This document shows, in pieces, positions 8,768-41,534 of a stretch of DNA of 41,534 nucleotides. Source of the DNA: Candidatus Rokuibacteriota bacterium (lineage in GTDB: Bacteria; Methylomirabilota; Methylomirabilia; Rokubacteriales; CSP1-6); assembly GCA_003221435.1 (NCBI GenBank), contig QHRS01000091.1:1-41534 (forward strand), read 5' to 3'. The position numbers were made by a program, and so were the translations under genes. The notes under the pieces are model-generated. The model searched no databases. It saw nothing but the letters and a program-made list of their open reading frames with translations, and was not told the DNA's origin. The number at the start of each line of letters is the position of its first letter. Within the stretch, counting starts at the first letter, position 1.

Positions 8768-9474
<707 letters not shown>

Positions 9475-9487
9475 CGCGCCGGTGCTG

Positions 9488-9581
9488 GACTGTCGAAGGG
9501 GGCCTCGGCGGCCCCCTCCGAGCCTCCCCCAGAATCGCACTGCGCCGGCAAAGCCGGCGCTCGATGGCGGACACTGCGACG
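9488..9581 (-). repeat. GC-rich palindromic intergenic repeat, copy A (long form)
   Basis: The reverse complement aligns over about 90 nt with 15061..15149. Both carry the core TGGGGGAGGCTCGGAGGGGGCCGCCGAGGCCCCC, with hairpin GGGGGCC-N5-GGCCCCC, and a second hairpin GCGCCGGC-ttt-GCCGGCGC. Confidence 0.85.
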
Positions 9582-9656
9582 GGCCTCGTGTGGCTCGCAA
9601 CTTGGAACGGCACCACGAGCCCGACTCCAATTAACCGCAGGTCGTTGGTACGGGCG

Positions 9657-10694
9657 CTAGGAGGCGCCGTCCGGGTCCGCTCGGTCCAGAGCGGCCAGCG
9701 CCCGTTCCGCCCGCTCGCGCTTGGCCGGGTCGGGATCACGGTGGGCAATGCGTAACAACGCCGGGCGCGCCACGGGGTCGCCGCGCTCCGCCAGCTCGAA
9801 GGCCTCGCGGTCGCGATTCTGGAAGTACGTCGTGTCGAAGCGGCTGACCGCCAGGTCGGTCCGCTTCCAGTAGAACTGGAGCTCCTCGGACCGCCAGTCG
9901 CGGTAGACCTCTTCCCAGGTCGCCTGACCGGTATGTGGCTCTAGGTTGGACTCGGCGATCGGCTGGGAGCGGGCCTGGTAGCGGTAGTCGACCGAGAGGC
10001 GCATGCGATCGGGCGTGAGGTTGGGAAGCGCCCGATGCACCATGTGGCTGTGGAAGAGCAGCACGTCTCCCGCCCGGTAGTCGGAGGTGTGCCACCGGTC
10101 GGGCAGCGCGCTCGGGTCGATGCCCATGCCGCCGGCGCCGAGGCTCAGGTGATACTCGTAGAGGCCAGCCGTGTGGGTTCCCGCATTGACCATGAGCCCG
10201 CCGAGCTGCCGCGGCACATCGCCGAGGGGGATCCAGGCGGTGAACGTCTCGGCCGTGCCCTGGATGAACGGGAAATCCTGGTGCGCGGGCGTGGTGTGCC
10301 GAACGTTCTGCGGGAAGCTGAGCCGCGCGATCTTGTTCGGATGCGGCAAGGCCGGCTCACCGAGCACCGCTTCGGCCAGGGCGAGGAGCGCCCCGTGATG
10401 GGCGAGAGCGTGGAAGGCCTCGAGCTTCTGCACTTCCCGGTACACCGCGATGAAGGCCGGCTCCGGCTCGACGCAGGCCTTCGCCGGATCCGCGCGGTCG
10501 TCGGGCGAATCCGGGCCGTCGAGCAGCCAGCCCGCGGCGCGGCAGCGCCCGAGGATCCCGCGGCGCACCCGTTGGATTTCCTCGCGCGGCAGCAGGCCCC
10601 GGAAGAAGAGGAAGCCGTCCCGGTCGAGCAGCGCGCGTTGCTCGCCGGGCTCGTCCAGGAGGTGATTCGCCGGGCTCAGCTCGTAGAGCGTCAT
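9657..10694 (-). CDS. Phytanoyl-CoA dioxygenase (PhyH) family Fe(II)/2-oxoglutarate oxygenase
   Basis: MTLYELSPANHLLDEP... with ...TTPAHQDFPFIQG... and ...GDVLLFHSHMVHRALPN (His-x-Asp...His facial triad context). It is the C-terminal part of ORF 9657..11669. Confidence 0.8.
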   Translation of the reverse strand: MTLYELSPANHLLDEPGEQRALLDRDGFLFFRGLLPREEIQRVRRGILGRCRAAGWLLDGPDSPDDRADPAKACVEPEPAFIAVYREVQKLEAFHALAHHGALLALAEAVLGEPALPHPNKIARLSFPQNVRHTTPAHQDFPFIQGTAETFTAWIPLGDVPRQLGGLMVNAGTHTAGLYEYHLSLGAGGMGIDPSALPDRWHTSDYRAGDVLLFHSHMVHRALPNLTPDRMRLSVDYRYQARSQPIAESNLEPHTGQATWEEVYRDWRSEELQFYWKRTDLAVSRFDTTYFQNRDREAFELAERGDPVARPALLRIAHRDPDPAKRERAERALAALDRADPDGAS

Positions 10695-14785: not shown

Positions 14786-14890
14786 GCGCGGGCGGGCACT
14801 CCGCTCTCCCGAGTCCGTCCGGCGCCCCCGGCCCTGCTCGAGAAGGTCGGAGCCGCGGGGCGGCGACAGCGCGAACGACCGAGTCAACGT

Positions 14891-14917
14891 CGGGGGGAGC
14901 GAGCGCCGCTCCCCCCG
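14891..14917. other. Perfect 11-bp GC-rich hairpin (CGGGGGGAGCG-agcgc-CGCTCCCCCCG)
   Basis: Read directly from the 383-bp spacer between lpxC and the DUF4390 gene. There is no U-tract. Confidence 0.6.
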
Positions 14918-15060
14918 ACACCCCCCACGGGGCCACCGGTCGCGACGATTCTTTCACGAGCTCCGAGACGTACACGGGCGTACGTCGCAGTGAGGAGCGA
15001 CCGAGCCAACGACACGGACGGGCTTTTGGCGGCGGCCCGCGAGACCAGACGAGCGGGGCC

Positions 15061-15149
15061 CGTCGGAGTGTCTGCCTTCGAGCGCCGGCCGGCGCAATGC
15101 GATTGTGGGGGAGGCTCGGAGGGGGCCGTCGAGGTCCCCTCCGATGGTC
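15061..15149 (+). repeat. GC-rich palindromic intergenic repeat, copy B (long form)
   Basis: Aligns with the reverse complement of 9488..9581. It abuts the lpxC stop codon (15149..15151). Confidence 0.85.
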
Positions 15150-16054
15150 TAGAGGGCGGCGAAACCCGGGGCGGGCGTCAGGTCGGCGGCCCGCGGGATC
15201 AGCTCCCGCGCGGGGCTCGCGGCACGCCGCGGGGCACCGTACGCTTGCTCGAGGGCCGTGACGAGCTGGAAATTCAGCGCGTGGCCGGCGTTGCGCGCGA
15301 TGACGTGGCCCTGAACCGGGCGGCCGAGCAACGCGAGGTCGCCGATCAGGTCGAGGATCTTGTGCCGGACGAACTCGTCGCGATAGCGGAGCTGGTTCAG
15401 CACGCTGCGCTTGCCGACGACGACCGCGTTGTCGAGCGAGCCGCCCTGCGCCAGGCCGTTCCGGCGCAGCTCATCGACGTCCTTCAGGAAGCCGTAGGTC
15501 CGGGCCGGCGCGAGCTCCCCGACGAACGTTTCTTCTGTCGGCTCGCACGAAATCACCTGGGTTCCGACGGCCGGATGGGTGCTGTCAAGCGTGTAGCTGA
15601 TGCGGAACGTGTCGCAGGGGAGGACCTGGAGCCAGCGGGACTCGGTGCCGACGCGGATCGGCCGGCTGATGACGAGCGGCTGGCGCCGGGCGCCAAGCGT
15701 CATGCGGCCGGCAGAGCGCAGCAGCGAGACGAAGGGCTGGGCGCTGCCGTCGGCTGCCGGAACTTCGGCTCCATCCACCTTGATGTCGAGGTTGTCGATG
15801 CCGAGTCCCGCGGCCGCGGCCATGAGATGCTCGACCGTCTGGACGCGCGTGCCGTTCGCGCCGAGCGTGGTCGCGTAATGGGAGTCGACGACGCTCGACG
15901 ACAGCGCAGGGATCGCGATCGTATGGCCGACGACGTGGAACAGAACCCCCGCGTTCGGGCCGGCCGGCGAGATGACGATCTTCGTGGGCCGCCCCGAGTG
16001 AAGTCCGATCCCTTCGAAGGCGACCTGTTTCTTGATCGTCTGTTGGAAGGTCAT
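15149..16054 (-). CDS. lpxC: UDP-3-O-acyl-N-acetylglucosamine deacetylase
   Basis: From the internal ATG at 16054: MTFQQTIKKQVAFEGIGLHSGRPTKIVISPA...TVEHLMAA...FVRHKILDLIGDL. 301 aa. Confidence 0.93.
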   Translation of the reverse strand: MTFQQTIKKQVAFEGIGLHSGRPTKIVISPAGPNAGVLFHVVGHTIAIPALSSSVVDSHYATTLGANGTRVQTVEHLMAAAAGLGIDNLDIKVDGAEVPAADGSAQPFVSLLRSAGRMTLGARRQPLVISRPIRVGTESRWLQVLPCDTFRISYTLDSTHPAVGTQVISCEPTEETFVGELAPARTYGFLKDVDELRRNGLAQGGSLDNAVVVGKRSVLNQLRYRDEFVRHKILDLIGDLALLGRPVQGHVIARNAGHALNFQLVTALEQAYGAPRRAASPARELIPRAADLTPAPGFAAL

Positions 16055-17932: not shown

Positions 17933-19005
17933 CACCCGCCGAGGATCTTCTTGACCCAGCCGCCCTCGTCCTTCATCGCCGCCTCGAACGCCTCGAGCGC
18001 CTCGCGTTGCTTCGCGGTGAGCTTCTGTGGCACTTCGAGTACAACCTGGTAGCAGGCATCGCCGTGCCCGCGGCCGCGCAGGTGCTGCATCCCTTTGCCG
18101 CGCAGCCGGAGCACCTGGTTCGGCTGGGTCCCCGGAGGCACCTTGAGCTTCGCGGTTCCGCCGAGGACCGGCACCTCGACCTCCGTGCCGAGGGCGAGCT
18201 GGGCGAACGTCAGCGGCAGCTCCGTGTAGAGGTCGGAGTCGCGGCGAACGAACCGCTCGTGCTCCTGCACGCGGACTACGACGTAGAGGTCTCCCGGCGG
18301 CCCGCCGCGCGCGCCCCCGGCGCCCTCGCCCGAGAGCCGCATCTGCATGCCGTCCTCGATGCCGGCCGGGATCTTGACCTGTAGCAGCCGCTCGCGGCGG
18401 ACCCGTCCGTCGCCGCGGCAGGTGGCGCACGGGTTCGCGACGATCTCGCCCTGGCCGCCGCAGCGCGGGCACGTCCGGCCGACCGTGAGGAAGCCCTGGG
18501 TGTAGCGAACCTCGCCGCGCCCGTGACACGCCTGGCAGACTTCGCGCTTGCTGCCGGATTCCACGCCGCTGCCGCTGCATGTCTCGCACGTCTCGAGGCG
18601 CGGGACCTGGATCTTCGTCTCGACCCCGCTCGCCGCCTCCTCGAGCGTGATCTTCAGCTCGTATTGCAGGTCTTCGCCGCGAACGGCGCGGCTCCGCTGC
18701 CGGCCGCCGCCGCCCGAGAAGAAGCCCTCGAAGAGGTCCTCGAACAGCGTCCCGAAGCCGACGTCGCCGAACCCGCCCGCCCCGGGCGAGACCGTGCCGA
18801 AGCGGTCGTACTGCGCCCGCTTGTCCGCGTCGGACAGGATGGCGTACGCCTCGTTCAGCTCCTTGAACCGGTTTTCTGCTTCGGCGTCGCCCGGATTCTT
18901 GTCGGGGTGATTGCGCATCGCGAGCTGCCGGTAGGCCTTCTTCAGCTCGGCGTCAGTCGCGTTGCGCGAGACGCCGAGCACTTCATAGTAGTCGCGCGGC
19001 ACCAC
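17932..19005 (-). CDS. dnaJ: Molecular chaperone DnaJ
   Basis: J domain ([34 protein letters not shown]), a G/F region and four CxxCxGxG zinc motifs. The start is uncertain: GTG at 19005 or 19002, or ATG at about 19098. The ORF-track extension to 19197 runs through repeat copy C and is rejected. Confidence 0.9.
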
Positions 19006-19111
19006 TCGGTGCCGGTCCAAATGACGAGCCAGACGAGGCCCAAGGGAGGGGGCGCCCGGAGTGTACGCGGTCTCGCGCGTCGTCTCGCCCACGGTCACCA
19101 TGCCATGCGGA

Positions 19112-19184
19112 CCGGTCCCCTGGGGGAGGCTCGGAGGGGGCCGCCGAGGCCCCCGTCGATGGGCAACGAAGTATGGCGAAGTAA
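19112..19184 (+). repeat. GC-rich palindromic intergenic repeat, copy C (short form with GATGGGCAACGAAGTATGGCGAA arm)
   Basis: CGGTCCCCTGGGGGAGGCTCGGAGGGGGCCGCCGAGGCCCCCGTCGATGGGCAACGAAGTATGGCGAAGTAA. The reverse complement of 41427..41499 matches with a few mismatches. Confidence 0.85.
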
Positions 19185-19196
19185 GGTGGCCCGGCA

Positions 19197-19712
19197 CTAG
19201 GCGTCCCCGTCGGGCGCGGTGGAGACCGTGACCAGCGCCGGGCGCAGGACCCGCCCGTTGAGCGCGTACCCGCGGAGCGTTTCGCCGACGACCGTGTTCT
19301 CGGGATGCTCCGGGCTGACCACGCGCGACACCGCTTCGTGGCGCGCGGGGTCGAAGCTGGCGCCGAGCGCGGAATACCGCTCGACCCCGAATCGCTCGAG
19401 CACCTTCAGGAGCTCGCGCTGGATCAGCTCGATGCCCTCAACCATCGGCGCCGCCTCGACGCGGGTGCGCGCGGCCTCGAGGGCGCGGTCGAAGTTGTCG
19501 AGCGCGGGCAGCAGCTCGCGGATCAGCGATTCGTTCGCGTACCGGATGTACTCCTCGCGCTCGCGTTGGGCCCGCCGCTTCGTGTTCTCCATCTCCGCGA
19601 GCGCGCGGAGGTAGCGGTCGCTCTTCTCTTCCAGCTCGCGCCGGAGCTGCTCGACCTCGCTCGCGGGCACGTCCCGGGGGGCGGTTGCCGATACTGACGG
19701 CCGTTCGTCCAT
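19197..19712 (-). CDS. grpE: Nucleotide exchange factor GrpE
   Basis: 171-aa ORF: ...[20 protein letters not shown]...[12 protein letters not shown]...FDPARHEAV. Confidence 0.93.
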
Positions 19713-34738: not shown

Positions 34739-35611
34739 CTGACGCTGCTCCCGGACCTCTTCGCCCAGGCGCTCAACGGCCTGGAGTACGGCATGCTGCT
34801 GTTTCTCCTGTCGGTCGGCCTCACGCTCATCTTCGGCATGCTCGACGTCATCAATCTCGCGCACGGGTCGTTCTACACGCTCGGCGCGTACGCGGGCCTC
34901 GCCATTGCCGCCGTGACGGGCGATTTCTGGATCGCGCTCGCGCTCGCGCCCGTCGTGGTCGCCGCCGTCGGCGCGCTGATCGAGCGAGGCTGCCTCCGCG
35001 CGCTCTACGCCCGCGGCCCCAACGCCCAGGTGCTGCTGACGTTCGGCTTCATCTACCTGTTCGACGACCTCGTGAAGTGGATCTGGGGGGCGCACGTCCG
35101 CTCGATGCCGCCGCCGGCCATGCTCGCCGGGTCGGTGGCGCTCGGCGCCCTGCGGTTCCCGTCCTACCGGCTGTTCGTCATCGTGTTCGGCCTGGCGGTG
35201 GCGGGGCTCCTCTGGCTCCTGCTCGAACGCACCCGGCTCGGCGCGATTCTGCGCGCGGGCGTCTATGACAGGGAGATGACCGCCGGGCTCGGGGTCAACG
35301 TGCACCGCGTGTTCACCGGGGTGTTCGCCGTCGGGGCGGCGCTCGCCGCGGTGGCCGGCGTCATCGCGGTGCCGATCCAGGCGGCCTACCCGGGGATGGG
35401 CGTCGAGATTCTGGTGCGCACGCTCATCGTTGTCGTGATCGGCGGACTCGGGAGCCTCAAGGGGTCGCTGGCCGGAAGCCTCATCCTCGGTCAGGCGGAG
35501 ACCTTCGGGAAGGCGTGGTTTCCCGATACGTCGATGTTCATCATCTACGGCGTGATGGTGCTCGTCCTCCTCGCGCGCCCGACGGGCCTCTTCGGTCGTG
35601 AGCTCCGGTAG
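34739..35611 (+). CDS. Branched-chain amino acid ABC transporter permease (LivH-like)
   Basis: The conserved N-terminus ...LLPDLFAQALNGLEYGMLLFLLSVGLTLIFGMLDVINLAHG begins upstream of the first ATG (34793). The only in-frame candidate is the CTG at 34739 (CTGACG), 5 nt after the SBP stop. Confidence 0.8.
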   Translation: MTLLPDLFAQALNGLEYGMLLFLLSVGLTLIFGMLDVINLAHGSFYTLGAYAGLAIAAVTGDFWIALALAPVVVAAVGALIERGCLRALYARGPNAQVLLTFGFIYLFDDLVKWIWGAHVRSMPPPAMLAGSVALGALRFPSYRLFVIVFGLAVAGLLWLLLERTRLGAILRAGVYDREMTAGLGVNVHRVFTGVFAVGAALAAVAGVIAVPIQAAYPGMGVEILVRTLIVVVIGGLGSLKGSLAGSLILGQAETFGKAWFPDTSMFIIYGVMVLVLLARPTGLFGRELR

Positions 35612-36551
35612 CCGCCGAGGCCCCCTTCGATGGTCTCGGCTCCTCGTCGGACTGGTGCTCGGCGCGGTGGCGGCAATGCCGTGGGTCGCGGGCACCTACC
35701 CGGTCAAGCTCGCGCAGGAGATCCTGATCTGGGGCATCTTCGCCATGAGCCTCGATCTGCTCGTGGGCTACGCCGGGATGATCTCGTTCGGGCACTCGGC
35801 GTTCTTCGGCCTCGGCGGCTATGTCGCCGCGCTCTGCCTCAAGCACTGGTCGCCGTCACTCGCGTCGGCGGTGCTCCTGCCCGCCGTCGCCGCGGGGGTC
35901 GCGGGGCTCGTCATCGGCTACCTGTCGATCCGGGTGAGCGGCGTGTACTTCATCATGCTGACGCTCGCGTTCTCCCAGATGCTGTACGCCGCGGCCTTCA
36001 GCACCGAGTGGCTCGGGTCGTCCGACGGGCTGCCCGGCGTCCCGCGGCCGAGCCTGCCGGGAGTCGACCTGAACCTGACGCCGGCGTTCCACCTCTACGT
36101 CATGGTCTTCTTCGCTCTGGCCGGCGTCGCGCTCGACCGGATCGTCCGCTCGCCGTTCGGACGCGTCCTGCGAGGGATCGATGACAACGCGCACAGGATG
36201 GCGGCGGTCGGCTACGCGGTGAACCGGTTCAAGCTGGTGGCCTTCGTCGTCGCGGCCGTGATCGCGGGGCTCGCGGGCTCGCTCTACGCGCAGTTCAACG
36301 GCTACGTCTCGCCCGAGATGTTGTTCTGGACGACGTCGGGGGAGGCGCTCCTGATGGTCATCATCGGGGGCACCCGAACACTCGCCGGACCCGTCCTCGG
36401 GGCGGCGGCGTTCATCGGCTTGCAGAGCCTCGTCAGCTCCTATACCGAGCGCTGGATGCTGATCCTCGGCGCGGTCTTCATCGGGTTCGTCCTCTGGGCG
36501 CCCGCCGGTCTGCTCGGGCTCGTGCAGGAGGGCGCGGAGCCGCGCGCCTGA
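35598..36551 (+). CDS. Branched-chain amino acid ABC transporter permease (LivM-like)
   Basis: 317-aa ORF: ...LDLLVGYAGMISFGHSAFFGLGGYVAA...GYVSPE... The start is uncertain: GTG at 35598, or later, for example the Met in AAMPWVAG. Confidence 0.85.
   Translation: MSSGSRRGPLRWSRLLVGLVLGAVAAMPWVAGTYPVKLAQEILIWGIFAMSLDLLVGYAGMISFGHSAFFGLGGYVAALCLKHWSPSLASAVLLPAVAAGVAGLVIGYLSIRVSGVYFIMLTLAFSQMLYAAAFSTEWLGSSDGLPGVPRPSLPGVDLNLTPAFHLYVMVFFALAGVALDRIVRSPFGRVLRGIDDNAHRMAAVGYAVNRFKLVAFVVAAVIAGLAGSLYAQFNGYVSPEMLFWTTSGEALLMVIIGGTRTLAGPVLGAAAFIGLQSLVSSYTERWMLILGAVFIGFVLWAPAGLLGLVQEGAEPRA
35611..35635 (+). repeat. Partial copy E (right arm only) of the GC-rich palindromic repeat
   Basis: GCCGCCGAGGCCCCCTTCGATGGTC matches the right arm of copies A and B. 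It sits at the livH-stop / livM-start junction and is translated as SRRGPLRWS in the livM ORF. Confidence 0.55.
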
Positions 36552-39640: not shown

Positions 39641-41404
39641 ATGACGCTTGATGCCGCCCCGTCCCAGCCGGGCGCGCCGTACACGCCCACGCACACGGTT
39701 GAGGCGATCGGCGGTCGCTGGGCCGTGGCGGCCGGGCATCCGCTCGCCGCGCAAGCTGGGGCCCGCATCCTCCAGGCCGGGGGCAACGCGATCGACGCGG
39801 GAGTCGCGGCCGGGCTCTGCCTGGGGGTCGTGCACCCCGAGATGGTCAGCGTCGCGGGCGTCGCGCCGATCCTCGTTCACCTCGCGAGCACTCGCGAGAC
39901 CTACCAGGTGTCCGGCGTCGGCCCGTATCCCCGCGCCCTCACGCTCGATTACTTCCGTGTTCGCTTCGGCGGCGAGATTCCGCCCGGCGTCGCCCGGGCC
40001 GTGGTGCCCGCGTCGCCCGCGTCGTGGCTCGAGGCGCTCGCGCGCTGGGGGACGATGTCGTTCGCCGACGTGGTGGCGCCCGCGCTCGAGTGCGCGGAAC
40101 GCGGCTTTCCGCTCTCGCGCTTCTCGGGCTTCCTGATGGCGGGCAACGAGGCCGCGTACCGGCGCTGGCCGACCTCGGCCGCGCTGTTTCTCCGGGACGG
40201 CCGACCCCTCAGGGCCGGCGAGGTCCTCGTGCAATCCGAGCTCGCGCAGACGCTCCGCACGATGGTCCGTGCCGAACAAACGGCCGGCGGCAACCGCGCG
40301 GCTGGCGTGGTCGCCGCGCGCGACGCCTTCTACCGGGGCGAGATCGCTCGCGCGATCGCCGCGTTCCATCAGGACAACGGCGGATTGCTCGCGTACGAGG
40401 ACCTCGCGTCCTTCCAGGTGGAGGTAGGCCACGCGCTCTTGACCGCGTTTCATGAGTACGAGGTGGCGACGTGCGGGTTCTGGTGCCAGGGGCCCGTGCT
40501 GCTCCAGATGCTCAACCTGCTCGAGTCATACGGCCTGCGAGCGCTCGGCCACAACTCGGCCGCGTACCTTCATCTCCTCGTTGAGGTGATCAAGCTGGCG
40601 TTCGCGGACCGCGACGCGTACTACGGCGATCCACTGCACGTCAAGGTCCCCGTCGATGGATTGCTCTCCAAGGCCTACGCCACGGCGCGGCGCACGCTGA
40701 TCCGCGAGCACGAAGCCTGGCCCGACATGCCTCCGGCCGGCGATCCAGACGGGCTCGCGGCGGTGCGGAACGGCGCTGGGCCGAGCGGGCGGCAGCCGGC
40801 GCGCGGGGCGCCGAGTCACTCGCTCGACACGAGCTACGTCGCGGTCGTCGACCAGCACGGCAACGGCTTCTCGGCGACGCCGAGTGACCCCAATGTGGAC
40901 GCGCCGGTCGTGCCGGGCGTCGGGTGCGTTGTCTCGCCGCGGGGCTCGCAGGGGTGGCTCGACCCCGCGCATCCGAGCGTGGTCGCGCCCGGCAAGCGCC
41001 CGCGACTGACTCCCGCGCCGGCGATGGCGTTCCGTGACGGCGCGCTCCTCATGCCCTTCGGCACTCCCGGCGGCGACGTGCAGCAGCAGGCGCTGCTCCA
41101 GGTGTTCCTCAACCTGGCCGTCTTCGGCCTCCCGATCCAGGACGCGATCGAGGCGCCGCGCGTGGCGTCGCGCAGTTTCCCCGATTCGTTCTGGCCCCAC
41201 TCGACCGCTGCCGGTAAGCTCGAGGTCGAGCGGCGCATCCCCGAAGAAACGCGTGGAGCCCTCGCGGCGCTCGGACACCAGGTCACCGCGTGGCCGGAGT
41301 GGGAGTGGCGGGCCGGCGCCGTCTGCGCCGTCCTGATCGGTCGCGGCGGCGCCCGACATGCGGGCGCAGACCCGCGACGCGGTTGTCACGCGATCGCCTG
41401 GTAG
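39641..41404 (+). CDS. ggt: Gamma-glutamyltransferase family protein
   Basis: 587-aa ORF: ...AAGHPLAAQAGARILQAGGNAIDA..., autoprocessing/nucleophile region SHSLDTSYVAVVDQHGN, and ...FGTPGGD... Confidence 0.9.
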   Translation: MTLDAAPSQPGAPYTPTHTVEAIGGRWAVAAGHPLAAQAGARILQAGGNAIDAGVAAGLCLGVVHPEMVSVAGVAPILVHLASTRETYQVSGVGPYPRALTLDYFRVRFGGEIPPGVARAVVPASPASWLEALARWGTMSFADVVAPALECAERGFPLSRFSGFLMAGNEAAYRRWPTSAALFLRDGRPLRAGEVLVQSELAQTLRTMVRAEQTAGGNRAAGVVAARDAFYRGEIARAIAAFHQDNGGLLAYEDLASFQVEVGHALLTAFHEYEVATCGFWCQGPVLLQMLNLLESYGLRALGHNSAAYLHLLVEVIKLAFADRDAYYGDPLHVKVPVDGLLSKAYATARRTLIREHEAWPDMPPAGDPDGLAAVRNGAGPSGRQPARGAPSHSLDTSYVAVVDQHGNGFSATPSDPNVDAPVVPGVGCVVSPRGSQGWLDPAHPSVVAPGKRPRLTPAPAMAFRDGALLMPFGTPGGDVQQQALLQVFLNLAVFGLPIQDAIEAPRVASRSFPDSFWPHSTAAGKLEVERRIPEETRGALAALGHQVTAWPEWEWRAGAVCAVLIGRGGARHAGADPRRGCHAIAW

Positions 41405-41426
41405 AGCCGTCTCGTGCCGTTCGAAG

Positions 41427-41499
41427 TTAGTTCGCCATACTTCGTTGCCCATCGGAGGGGGCCTCGACGGCCCCCTCCGAGCCTTCCCCAAGGGACCGA
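41427..41499 (-). repeat. GC-rich palindromic intergenic repeat, copy D (short form)
   Basis: The reverse complement aligns with 19112..19184, including the GATGGGCAACGAAGTATGGCGAA arm. It lies 23 nt downstream of the GGT stop. Confidence 0.85.
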
Positions 41500-41534
41500 T
41501 GGCGCCGTTTGTTCGGGTGGTCGCCTGCGCGGTG

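Follow-up and report, generated by a model that had tools for sequence, protein, structure and literature searches.

The window analysed here, 41,534 nucleotides that make up the whole of contig C51, comes from the source genome G000, an assembly of 3.43 Mb in 351 contigs with 68.5% GC and 82% completeness, for which a simple custom codon-usage caller gave 3243 genes and a coding share of 87%. Among its genes, Pfam identified PhyH, LpxC, DnaJ, GrpE, gamma-glutamyltranspeptidase (ggt) and two LivH/M-type permeases, bearing out the flanking genes named in a sequence-only reading of the window, which had described five copies of a GC-rich palindromic repeat at gene boundaries. The repeated core is real: the 33-nt sequence GGGGGAGGCTCGGAGGGGGCCGYCGAGGYCCCC was matched four times, at 9498-9530 (minus strand, copy A), 15107-15139 (plus, copy B), 19122-19154 (plus, copy C) and 41457-41489 (minus, copy D, with one mismatch), and none of 100 shuffles gave any match. 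So is the fifth, partial copy, a 25-nt sequence (CCGCCGAGGCCCCCTTCGATGGTCT) at 35612-35636 that directly follows the livH stop TAG at 35609-35611. The hairpin first drawn as GGGGGCC-N5-GGCCCCC is present, its stem really being 12 bp long, TCGGAGGGGGCC / GGCCCCCT(C/T)CGA (H2), and the second hairpin, common to copies A and B, is CGCCGGC-TTT-GCCGGCG (H1), with a 5-nt deletion in copy B. Copies C and D have the module GATGGGCAACGAAGTATGGCGAAGTAA... in common, as had been noticed; the shared segments behind the original description of a modular element exist, but they are better read as nesting, with copies C and D belonging to one family, family B, that carries another, family A.

Copy A is a full-length family A element at 9485..9590 (-), with H1 at 9542-9560; its nhmmer match, of 85 bits, runs from 9486 to 9586 and covers model positions 5-105, the tetranucleotides at its two ends now read CCAG and CACG through decay, and its locus measures 214 nt, against a 29-nt gap in the same-genus genome G001. 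Beside it, at 9591..9660 (-), lies what comparison with family B ends identifies as the remains of a left inverted repeat of family B (9591-9619, TGGCTCGCAACTTGGAACGGCAC...), followed by a further repeat module at 9620-9656 and a CTAG at 9657-9660, the CTA of which is the stop codon of the PhyH gene. Copy B, also of family A, occupies 15056..15152 (+) (nhmmer match 15057-15151, 72 bits), and its right-end CTAG at 15149-15152 contains the lpxC stop (15149-15151, minus strand). Close by, at 14876-14965, is a member of a further repeat family (…GTCGGGGGGAGCGAGCGCCGCTCCCCCCGACACCCCCCAC…) that numbers about 46 copies in the source genome and is very common in G001 and in the same-genus G002, with 50-mers 95-98% identical.

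Copy C, at 19005..19200 (+), is a family B miniature inverted-repeat element (MITE) with ends GTGCCGGTCCAAAT... and ...GGTGGCCCGGCAC as inverted repeats; it is bounded by CTCG at 19005-19008 and by CTAG at 19197-19200, the latter holding the grpE stop, and its interior is an internally deleted family A that retains the H2 core. The neighbouring dnaJ start is ambiguous, with two adjacent in-frame GTG codons at 19000-19005 (CAC CAC on the plus strand), of which 19000-19002 is favoured by alignment with G001 and the same-genus G003. Copy D, at 41411..41534 (-), starts 7 nt past the ggt stop (41402-41404) and is cut by the contig end. Its parts are CTCG (41411-41414), an inverted repeat (41415-41436), the H2 core, a linker and the start of a second insert, Y; its nhmmer match spans 41447-41507, and it was assigned by comparison with full copies of family B carrying family A and Y, such as C271:2430-2751. 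Copies A and B are thus classed as family A proper, copy C as family B with a truncated family A, and copy D as family B with family A and Y. The fifth copy, at 35612..35637 (+), is a family A relic consisting of the H2 right arm, the right tail (CCGCCGAGGCCCCCTTCGATGGT) and a decayed CTCG, placed between the livH stop and the likely livM start (GTG 35655). Internal-deletion derivatives of this kind, retaining just the H2 right arm, occur elsewhere in the source genome. As had been suspected, the repeats create misleading Arg/Gly/Pro-rich extensions of open reading frames, for example one starting at GTG 35598 that reads through this relic. The relic was considered as a source of a ribosome-binding site and ATG for livM and ruled out, the ATG at 35630 being out of frame with livM.

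The core is neither confined to the window nor part of a single coding family: 168 copies with at most four mismatches were found in the source genome. An iterated nhmmer profile of the full element, which also catches a sister family, gave 292 matches, and 245 of them do not overlap any predicted coding sequence, which takes up 87% of the genome (binomial p ~1e-166). In-frame insertion into genes was considered as well, and 14 of the 22 in-gene matches, placed at the very tips of crudely called genes, are artefacts of open reading frame extension.

A consensus built by anchoring and MAFFT alignment puts family A at about 106 nt and gives it the layout CTAG, a 27-nt left module, H1 (8 bp), a variable linker, H2 (12 bp), TTCGATGGT and CTAG. 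The left part reads CTAG-GAGCCTGTCGGAGTAACCGGCTTCGAG (module L1), then H1 and the linker; the right part reads GGGGGAGGC-TCGGAGGGGGCC-GYCGA-GGCCCCCT(C/T)CGA, which is H2, then TGGT-CTAG. The element starts with GGAGCCTGTCGGAG... and finishes with ...CCCTTCGATGGTC, terminating in GAGG-N9-ATG-GTC-TAG. About 96 full-length copies are present in the source genome. Terminal inverted repeats were sought at the family A ends, and these align no better than shuffles do (score 6, p = 0.057, out of register). In the consensus, L1 looks like a hairpin-less copy of H2 and its tail in direct relation.

Both strands of the element fold into the two hairpins, with z = -3.6 and -4.1 relative to shuffled sequence. 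When the 292 copies are aligned, the stem positions are paired in 91-99% of cases, with a single exception at 77%, and the changes include one compensatory switch from C-G to G-C (35 copies) and one G-C/G-T polymorphism. The hairpins are probably what the mobilising machinery or the host constrains. No Rfam family matched the window at its gathering score, nor the region 9440-9700 at E <= 1. Where two or three copies are clustered, they mostly stand in direct tandem and repeat every 75 nt, each unit reaching from CTAG to CTAG without L1; of 44 multi-copy clusters, 32 are purely direct (29 in another tally) and just 9 are inverted pairs. Units within one array have private variants in common, which indicates that arrays grow by local duplication.

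The sister family has H1 in common with family A and differs in H2 (GGGGGAGGTTCGGAAGGGGGGCGGAGCCCCCCTCCGAGG, about 50 copies in the source genome) and in its ends. It is found outside the window, for example at C4:12301, C30:3107, C343:10065 and C218:8626. Both of its ends face outward and carry Shine-Dalgarno-like motifs just before the ATG, GTG, CAT or CAC that opens a flanking reading frame, as in …GAGGAAGCTC-ATG and, on the other strand, GAGAGGAGGGTAGTC-CAGTG. From these features the sister family looks like a mobile element that carries a ribosome-binding site to the downstream gene.

Family B is of a different build, with terminal inverted repeats of about 20 nt (CTAGTGCCGTTCCAAGTTACGAGCC ... 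GGCGAAGTAAATTGGAACGGCACTAG) that have 70 end matches in the source genome. Its copies form a graded series. The simplest, family B alone, measure 84-130 nt, and a further form has 174 nt; copies into which family A is nested reach 228-273 nt, and the largest form, of 321 nt, also has the 66-nt insert Y in the linker of its nested family A. Insert Y (GTTTGGGGAGCCGAGCGGTTCGCGGGGCTGGGGCCCCGCACCGCGCAGGCGACCACTCGAACGAAC) has 20 copies in the source genome, for example at C87:2527 and within the C271 copy, and its start lies at 41508-41534 of the window. In 19 of the 20 it is placed between H1 and the H2-type hairpin of family A or the sister family; the remaining copy is missing the H2 side, and Y was never seen alone.

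Mobility is suggested by comparison with the closest genomes that could be used at orthologous sites, the same-genus G001, G002 and G003, whose genes are some 70-85% identical to those of the source genome. Metagenome contigs screened for nearer relatives gave top LpxC matches of just 60-69% identity. At a family A site on contig C192, the source genome reads GCGCCG-CTAG-(102 nt)-CTAG-TCGCG where G001 has a single CTAG, in which the stop codons of two convergent genes overlap. A second, on C202, reads ...CTAG-(98 nt)-CTAG-TGTACCCTG, where G001 and G003 each have one CTAG-TGTAC, and a third, on C115, reads GGATCCGC-CTAG-(...)-CTAG-ACGGCGG against GGATCCGC-CAGG-ACGGCGG in G001. This last copy (C115:13432-13538) stands where G001 reads as uninterrupted coding sequence (CGC CAG GAC GGC); the gene caller runs a single gene across it in the source genome, and the element may split that gene.

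For family B, the grpE-dnaJ junction is informative. The two genes are 3-4 nt apart in G003 (GCCAC-GCG-CTAG-GCG) and G001 (GGCAC-CGGG-CTAC-GCG), as against a 191-nt insert bounded by CTCG and CTAG in the source genome; in G002 the junction is occupied by an unrelated repeat, of the family found at 14876-14965 of the window. The family B insertion removed the 3-nt grpE-dnaJ coupling of G001 and G003. At lpxC, G002 and G003 are without the element and retain the same CTAG-AG stop, with a spacer of just 84-90 nt. Since empty sites have a single tetranucleotide and occupied sites have CTAG on both sides, insertion appears to duplicate CTAG (4 bp) or its TA (2 bp), and the data fit both. CTAG stands at both ends in just 14 of the 96 full-length family A copies; the other end tetranucleotides, including CCAG, CTGG, CCGG, CGAG, TTAG and CTAT, are mostly one or two transitions away and are read as decayed, and right-end variants CTAT, CTAA and TTAG also occur. 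The reverse comparison, for elements present in G001 and absent from the source genome, yielded eight loci with size differences, the boundaries of which are unclear because stop codons differ between the species. Counting against insertion at CTAG, the sole junction at which family A is nested in family B is flanked by AAC.

The placement of the repeats at gene boundaries follows from the distribution of this target. CTAG is ten-fold depleted in the source genome, with 990 occurrences observed and 9814 expected, and when 988 of them were classed, 290 fell in coding sequence (280 outside any element), 215 on stop codons and 483 between genes, many of the last being element ends. Among other tetranucleotides, TTAA is eight-fold under-represented in this genome (0.13 of expectation, against 0.10 for CTAG), and GATC and TCGA are 3.4-fold over-represented. 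Because CTAG is scarce and survives mainly at stops and in intergenic DNA, insertions land there and the copies appear to mark gene boundaries. Element ends within 5 nt of a gene were found at 92 of 225 stop-facing and 10 of 167 start-facing positions (Fisher p = 2e-16), and elements lie in 43 convergent spacers versus 14 divergent ones, where the genome baseline is 301:304 (p = 9e-5). Several exactly span a stop-to-stop gap, each terminal CTAG serving as a stop. This stop-codon and boundary pattern is predicted by target scarcity alone.

Orientation is another matter. Among 64 full-length single copies, a stop codon directly adjoins the right end in 31 cases and the left end in 7 (p = 1e-4), and between genes read in tandem antisense copies outnumber sense ones by about 2:1. 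A bias of this kind is not expected from a palindromic target and needs either selection or a mechanistic asymmetry of another sort. No association between GC skew and element orientation was detected in the source genome, which rules out replication-linked orientation of the kind seen with IS200/IS605. Selection after insertion may account for the bias. In the favoured orientation the mRNA would read UAG, then H2, then a CCUCC-rich rather than a GGAGG-rich sequence.

The candidate mobilising enzymes were sought through their transposase domains. A DDE_3 search of the relatives led to a 1161-bp insertion sequence in G027 (L156, G027:C377:235-1395) with CTAGTGCTGTTCCAACTTA at both ends, which match family B ends at about 17 of 19 positions. 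This element and copies in G003, G046, G022 and G057 have ends CTAGTGC(T/C)G(T/A)TCCAACTT and HTH and DDE_3 reading frames; in G027 a frame with two HTH domains is followed by a run of eight A residues, a putative frameshift or transcriptional slippage site joining the two, and then by the DDE_3 frame. This second frame crosses the inverted repeat, and its TAG is made by the flanking TA+C of CTAG. Of 151 genomes of the order, 7 have insertion sequences of this type, the same-genus G003 among them; in five full-length copies both ends are visible, and each of the five is flanked by CTAG on either side. Since its ends are common to a full insertion sequence, family B is an IS630-type MITE, and its parent is an IS630-family element. 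A family A copy abuts the G027 L156 element, a single CTAG being common to both.

The same approach gave no parent for family A among the transposase loci examined, in genomes that are themselves incomplete. The source genome, at 82% completeness, yielded no full IS630-, IS4/IS5- or IS1380-type transposase, just a partial IS630-like gene at a contig end (C329:6068-6878; two HTH domains, 245 amino acids before the contig stops); its left end starts at CTAG (CTAGTGTCCTGAGTCTGAAGTCATG), and no MITE with such ends was found in the source genome. Sixteen DDE_3 loci were put through a full fuzzy end search for an IS630-type parent, and several are flanked by CTAG with none like family A; 14 IS4/IS5-type loci (PF01609, DDE_Tnp_1) had neither family A nor family B ends; and the IS427-type search (PF13586) returned just one unrelated low-GC insertion sequence, in G022. 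Twenty DDE_Tnp_1_4 loci had no family A ends by an exact 11-nt pattern that itself misses most known family A copies, and the inverted-repeat check covered five of the 20. IS1380-type transposases are present in 48 of the 151 genomes of the order. One of them belongs to an IS1380-family insertion sequence with CTAG on both sides (L195, G056:C91, locus 1270-2961; PF13701, 422 bits), the end of which (CCTGGATTATTCATGA) does not match family A. Both the IS630 type and the IS1380 type are thus CTAG-flanked; the target alone does not name the enzyme, and at least two transposase families use it. IS630 itself prefers TA within CTAG, according to Tenzen and Ohtsubo 1991 as cited in PMC2170065, and the stop codon of the IS870 reading frame is supplied by its CTAG target, according to Fournier 1993 as cited in PMC13630536.

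We consider it likely that, as non-autonomous miniature mobile elements, the repeats insert at CTAG and duplicate CTAG or its central TA. The sequence-only reading had offered a MITE-like element among its options, and this part of it held up: the repeats are dispersed and non-coding, their presence at orthologous sites varies between sister species, and a duplicated CTAG flanks them. Insertion at a CTAG on a stop codon would, through the duplication, return TAG to each flanking gene. Elements would also insert into one another's CTAG ends and interiors, giving rise to the modular look, with family A coming to sit inside family B and insert Y inside the family A linker. Relics such as the livH/livM fragment would result from internal deletions, and the 75-nt tandem arrays from local duplication. 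Family B is moved by an IS630-family transposase, and family A would be moved in trans by a postulated CTAG-specific DDE transposase, either of the IS630 type with TA duplication or of the IS1380/IS5 type with a 4-bp duplication.

A bolder version, which we regard as unlikely, takes family A not as a passive MITE but as a hairpin element without terminal inverted repeats that a CTAG-specific transposase mobilises by way of its structure and not of its end sequences, and holds that it or the sister family may have been shaped by selection into an "operon-safe" form. If that were so, the element would restore both flanking stop codons, the orientation that is kept would give the upstream mRNA an anti-SD-like, hairpin-capped 3' end, and the sister family would supply a ribosome-binding site and start context downstream, amounting to a lineage-wide, partly domesticated gene-boundary toolkit in Rokubacteriales.

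It is rather improbable that the hairpins are kept mainly for a host function, whether as mRNA stabiliser, as terminator independent of a U-tract or as protein-binding site, with mobility secondary. The polarity at stops and the bias in tandem contexts hint at selection, and the near-complete stem pairing, the folding stability relative to shuffles and the finding that identity to the consensus rises to 95% in copies from other genera, where genes within the genus reach just 70-85%, could all be expected of a maintained structure. However, active transposon families typically show high conservation too, the location on stop codons follows from target availability alone, both orientations occur in every context, and sister species do without the element at lpxC, at grpE-dnaJ and at three further sites. 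Rfam gave no match even at E <= 1. A U-tract was sought behind either hairpin on either strand and is absent: TTCGATGG comes after H2 on one strand and TCCGAGCCTCCCCC on the other, and after H1 stands CCATCC or TCGAAG.

Very improbable is a MIRU-like relay, in which built-in stop and start codons and ribosome-binding sites would pass ribosomes between the genes of an operon. Its attractions are the 75-nt tandem unit, a multiple of three, the GAGG-N9-ATG-GTC-TAG terminus of family A and the GGAGG-like ends of the sister family (L2, tail GAGGAAGCTCATG), 5-8 nt before the ATG or GTG of a flanking reading frame. Yet family A ends seldom abut starts (the 10 of 167 above), most copies follow terminal or convergent genes, the favoured orientation presents CCUCC rather than GGAGG to the mRNA, and the sole assessable case in the window, the relic before livM, fails on frame.

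Hardly credible, finally, is the REP/BIME origin that had also been proposed for these repeats, in which a RAYT transposase (Y1/HUH) would recognise a tetranucleotide beside the hairpin and copy the extragenic palindromes. The repeats do resemble the REP/BIME and REPIN-RAYT systems of proteobacteria in being GC-rich extragenic hairpins in hundreds of clustered copies that mislead the calling of open reading frames and are enriched at the 3' ends of genes and in convergent spacers, and they match the proposed origin in having CTAG directly 5' of H1 in the short tandem units and, in family A, no inverted-repeat ends. But PF01797 (Y1_Tnp) went unmatched in the source genome and eight repeat-rich relatives (G001, G006, G012, G014, G016, G021, G027 and G029), with controls matching, in a set of incomplete genomes derived from metagenomes; a Y1 domain was found in 8 of 31 genomes, of which five have 0 or 1 repeat match, one has 1 and two (G015 and G022) have more than 20, and no RAYT-like link between Y1 genes and repeats was seen in these eight. 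The GTAG/CGTC tag typical of REP palindromes of 20-40 nt is absent, the boundary tetranucleotide being CTAG, and both ends have the same duplicated target, a duplication evident from the empty sites and one that REPs do not make. The clusters are mostly direct tandems rather than inverted doublets, H1 and H2 differ in sequence, and orientation is unlinked to GC skew.

Returning to miniature elements that insert at CTAG, their closest counterparts are the insertion sequences of the IS630/Tc1-mariner group and the MITEs derived from them (IS630, IS870 and the RUP of Streptococcus pneumoniae), in which, as here, a CTAG target is duplicated around a small, non-coding, structured interior. Family B fits this group through terminal inverted repeats common to a full insertion sequence with two HTH domains and DDE_3, and the way in which the transposase frame of the G027 type stops in the flanking TA+C recalls IS870 as that element is described in PMC13630536. 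Family A departs from it: it is without terminal inverted repeats, no parent was found at the loci examined, its left module resembles a degraded direct copy of its own right end, and its orientation is biased with respect to genes. MITEPsy1 of Pseudomonas syringae, a 100-nt element derived from the IS5 family, inserts at CTAG/YTAA and duplicates 4 nt (PMC3189936). It is comparable in its length of about 100 nt, its CTAG or YTAR-like duplicated target and its lack of autonomy; it differs in having 18-nt inverted repeats that match ISPsy2, where family A has none, and in numbering a handful of copies as against hundreds here, and no IS5-type locus examined carries family A ends. As a general matter, the repeats are also reminiscent of other abundant intergenic miniature elements that are nested or mosaic. 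Correia elements of Neisseria, RIME and ERIC are abundant intergenic miniature elements with TA-type duplications and size variants that arise by internal deletion. Elements of their type can affect the expression of neighbouring genes. Correia elements are further known for inverted repeats of 26 nt and for promoter and IHF sites, none of which was seen here.

An 81-nt query from H1 to H2 matched 26 of the 31 nearest relatives and, in a phylum-wide sample, 62 of 72 genomes of the same family, 5 of 9 from other families of the order and 1 of 39 from outside it. Family A thus appears essentially confined to the order Rokubacteriales. Copy number is patchy even within the genus, with many copies in G001 and almost none in G002 and G003. 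No match was found among PLSDB plasmids, and the literature that was searched has no paper on repeats in Rokubacteria. The kind of element is familiar; the family is new.

Elements of this kind account for much of the DNA between genes in this uncultured order of soil bacteria: matches to the family A profile alone, including the sister family, cover about 0.7% of the source genome, and at least four other families stand beside them. They explain assembly breaks in Rokubacteria, 31 of the 292 matches lying within 300 nt of a contig end, a zone that makes up about 6% of the genome, and the false Arg/Gly/Pro-rich extensions that gene callers add to reading frames. They could serve as dated insertion markers for the comparison of Rokubacteria species, and they point to CTAG-specific transposases of the IS630 and IS1380 types. 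The orientation bias and the missing inverted repeats of family A are the parts that deserve specialist attention. For the biology of the order, the repeats offer a clear natural example of how scarcity of a target site steers a transposon onto stop codons, leaving the genes on either side unharmed.
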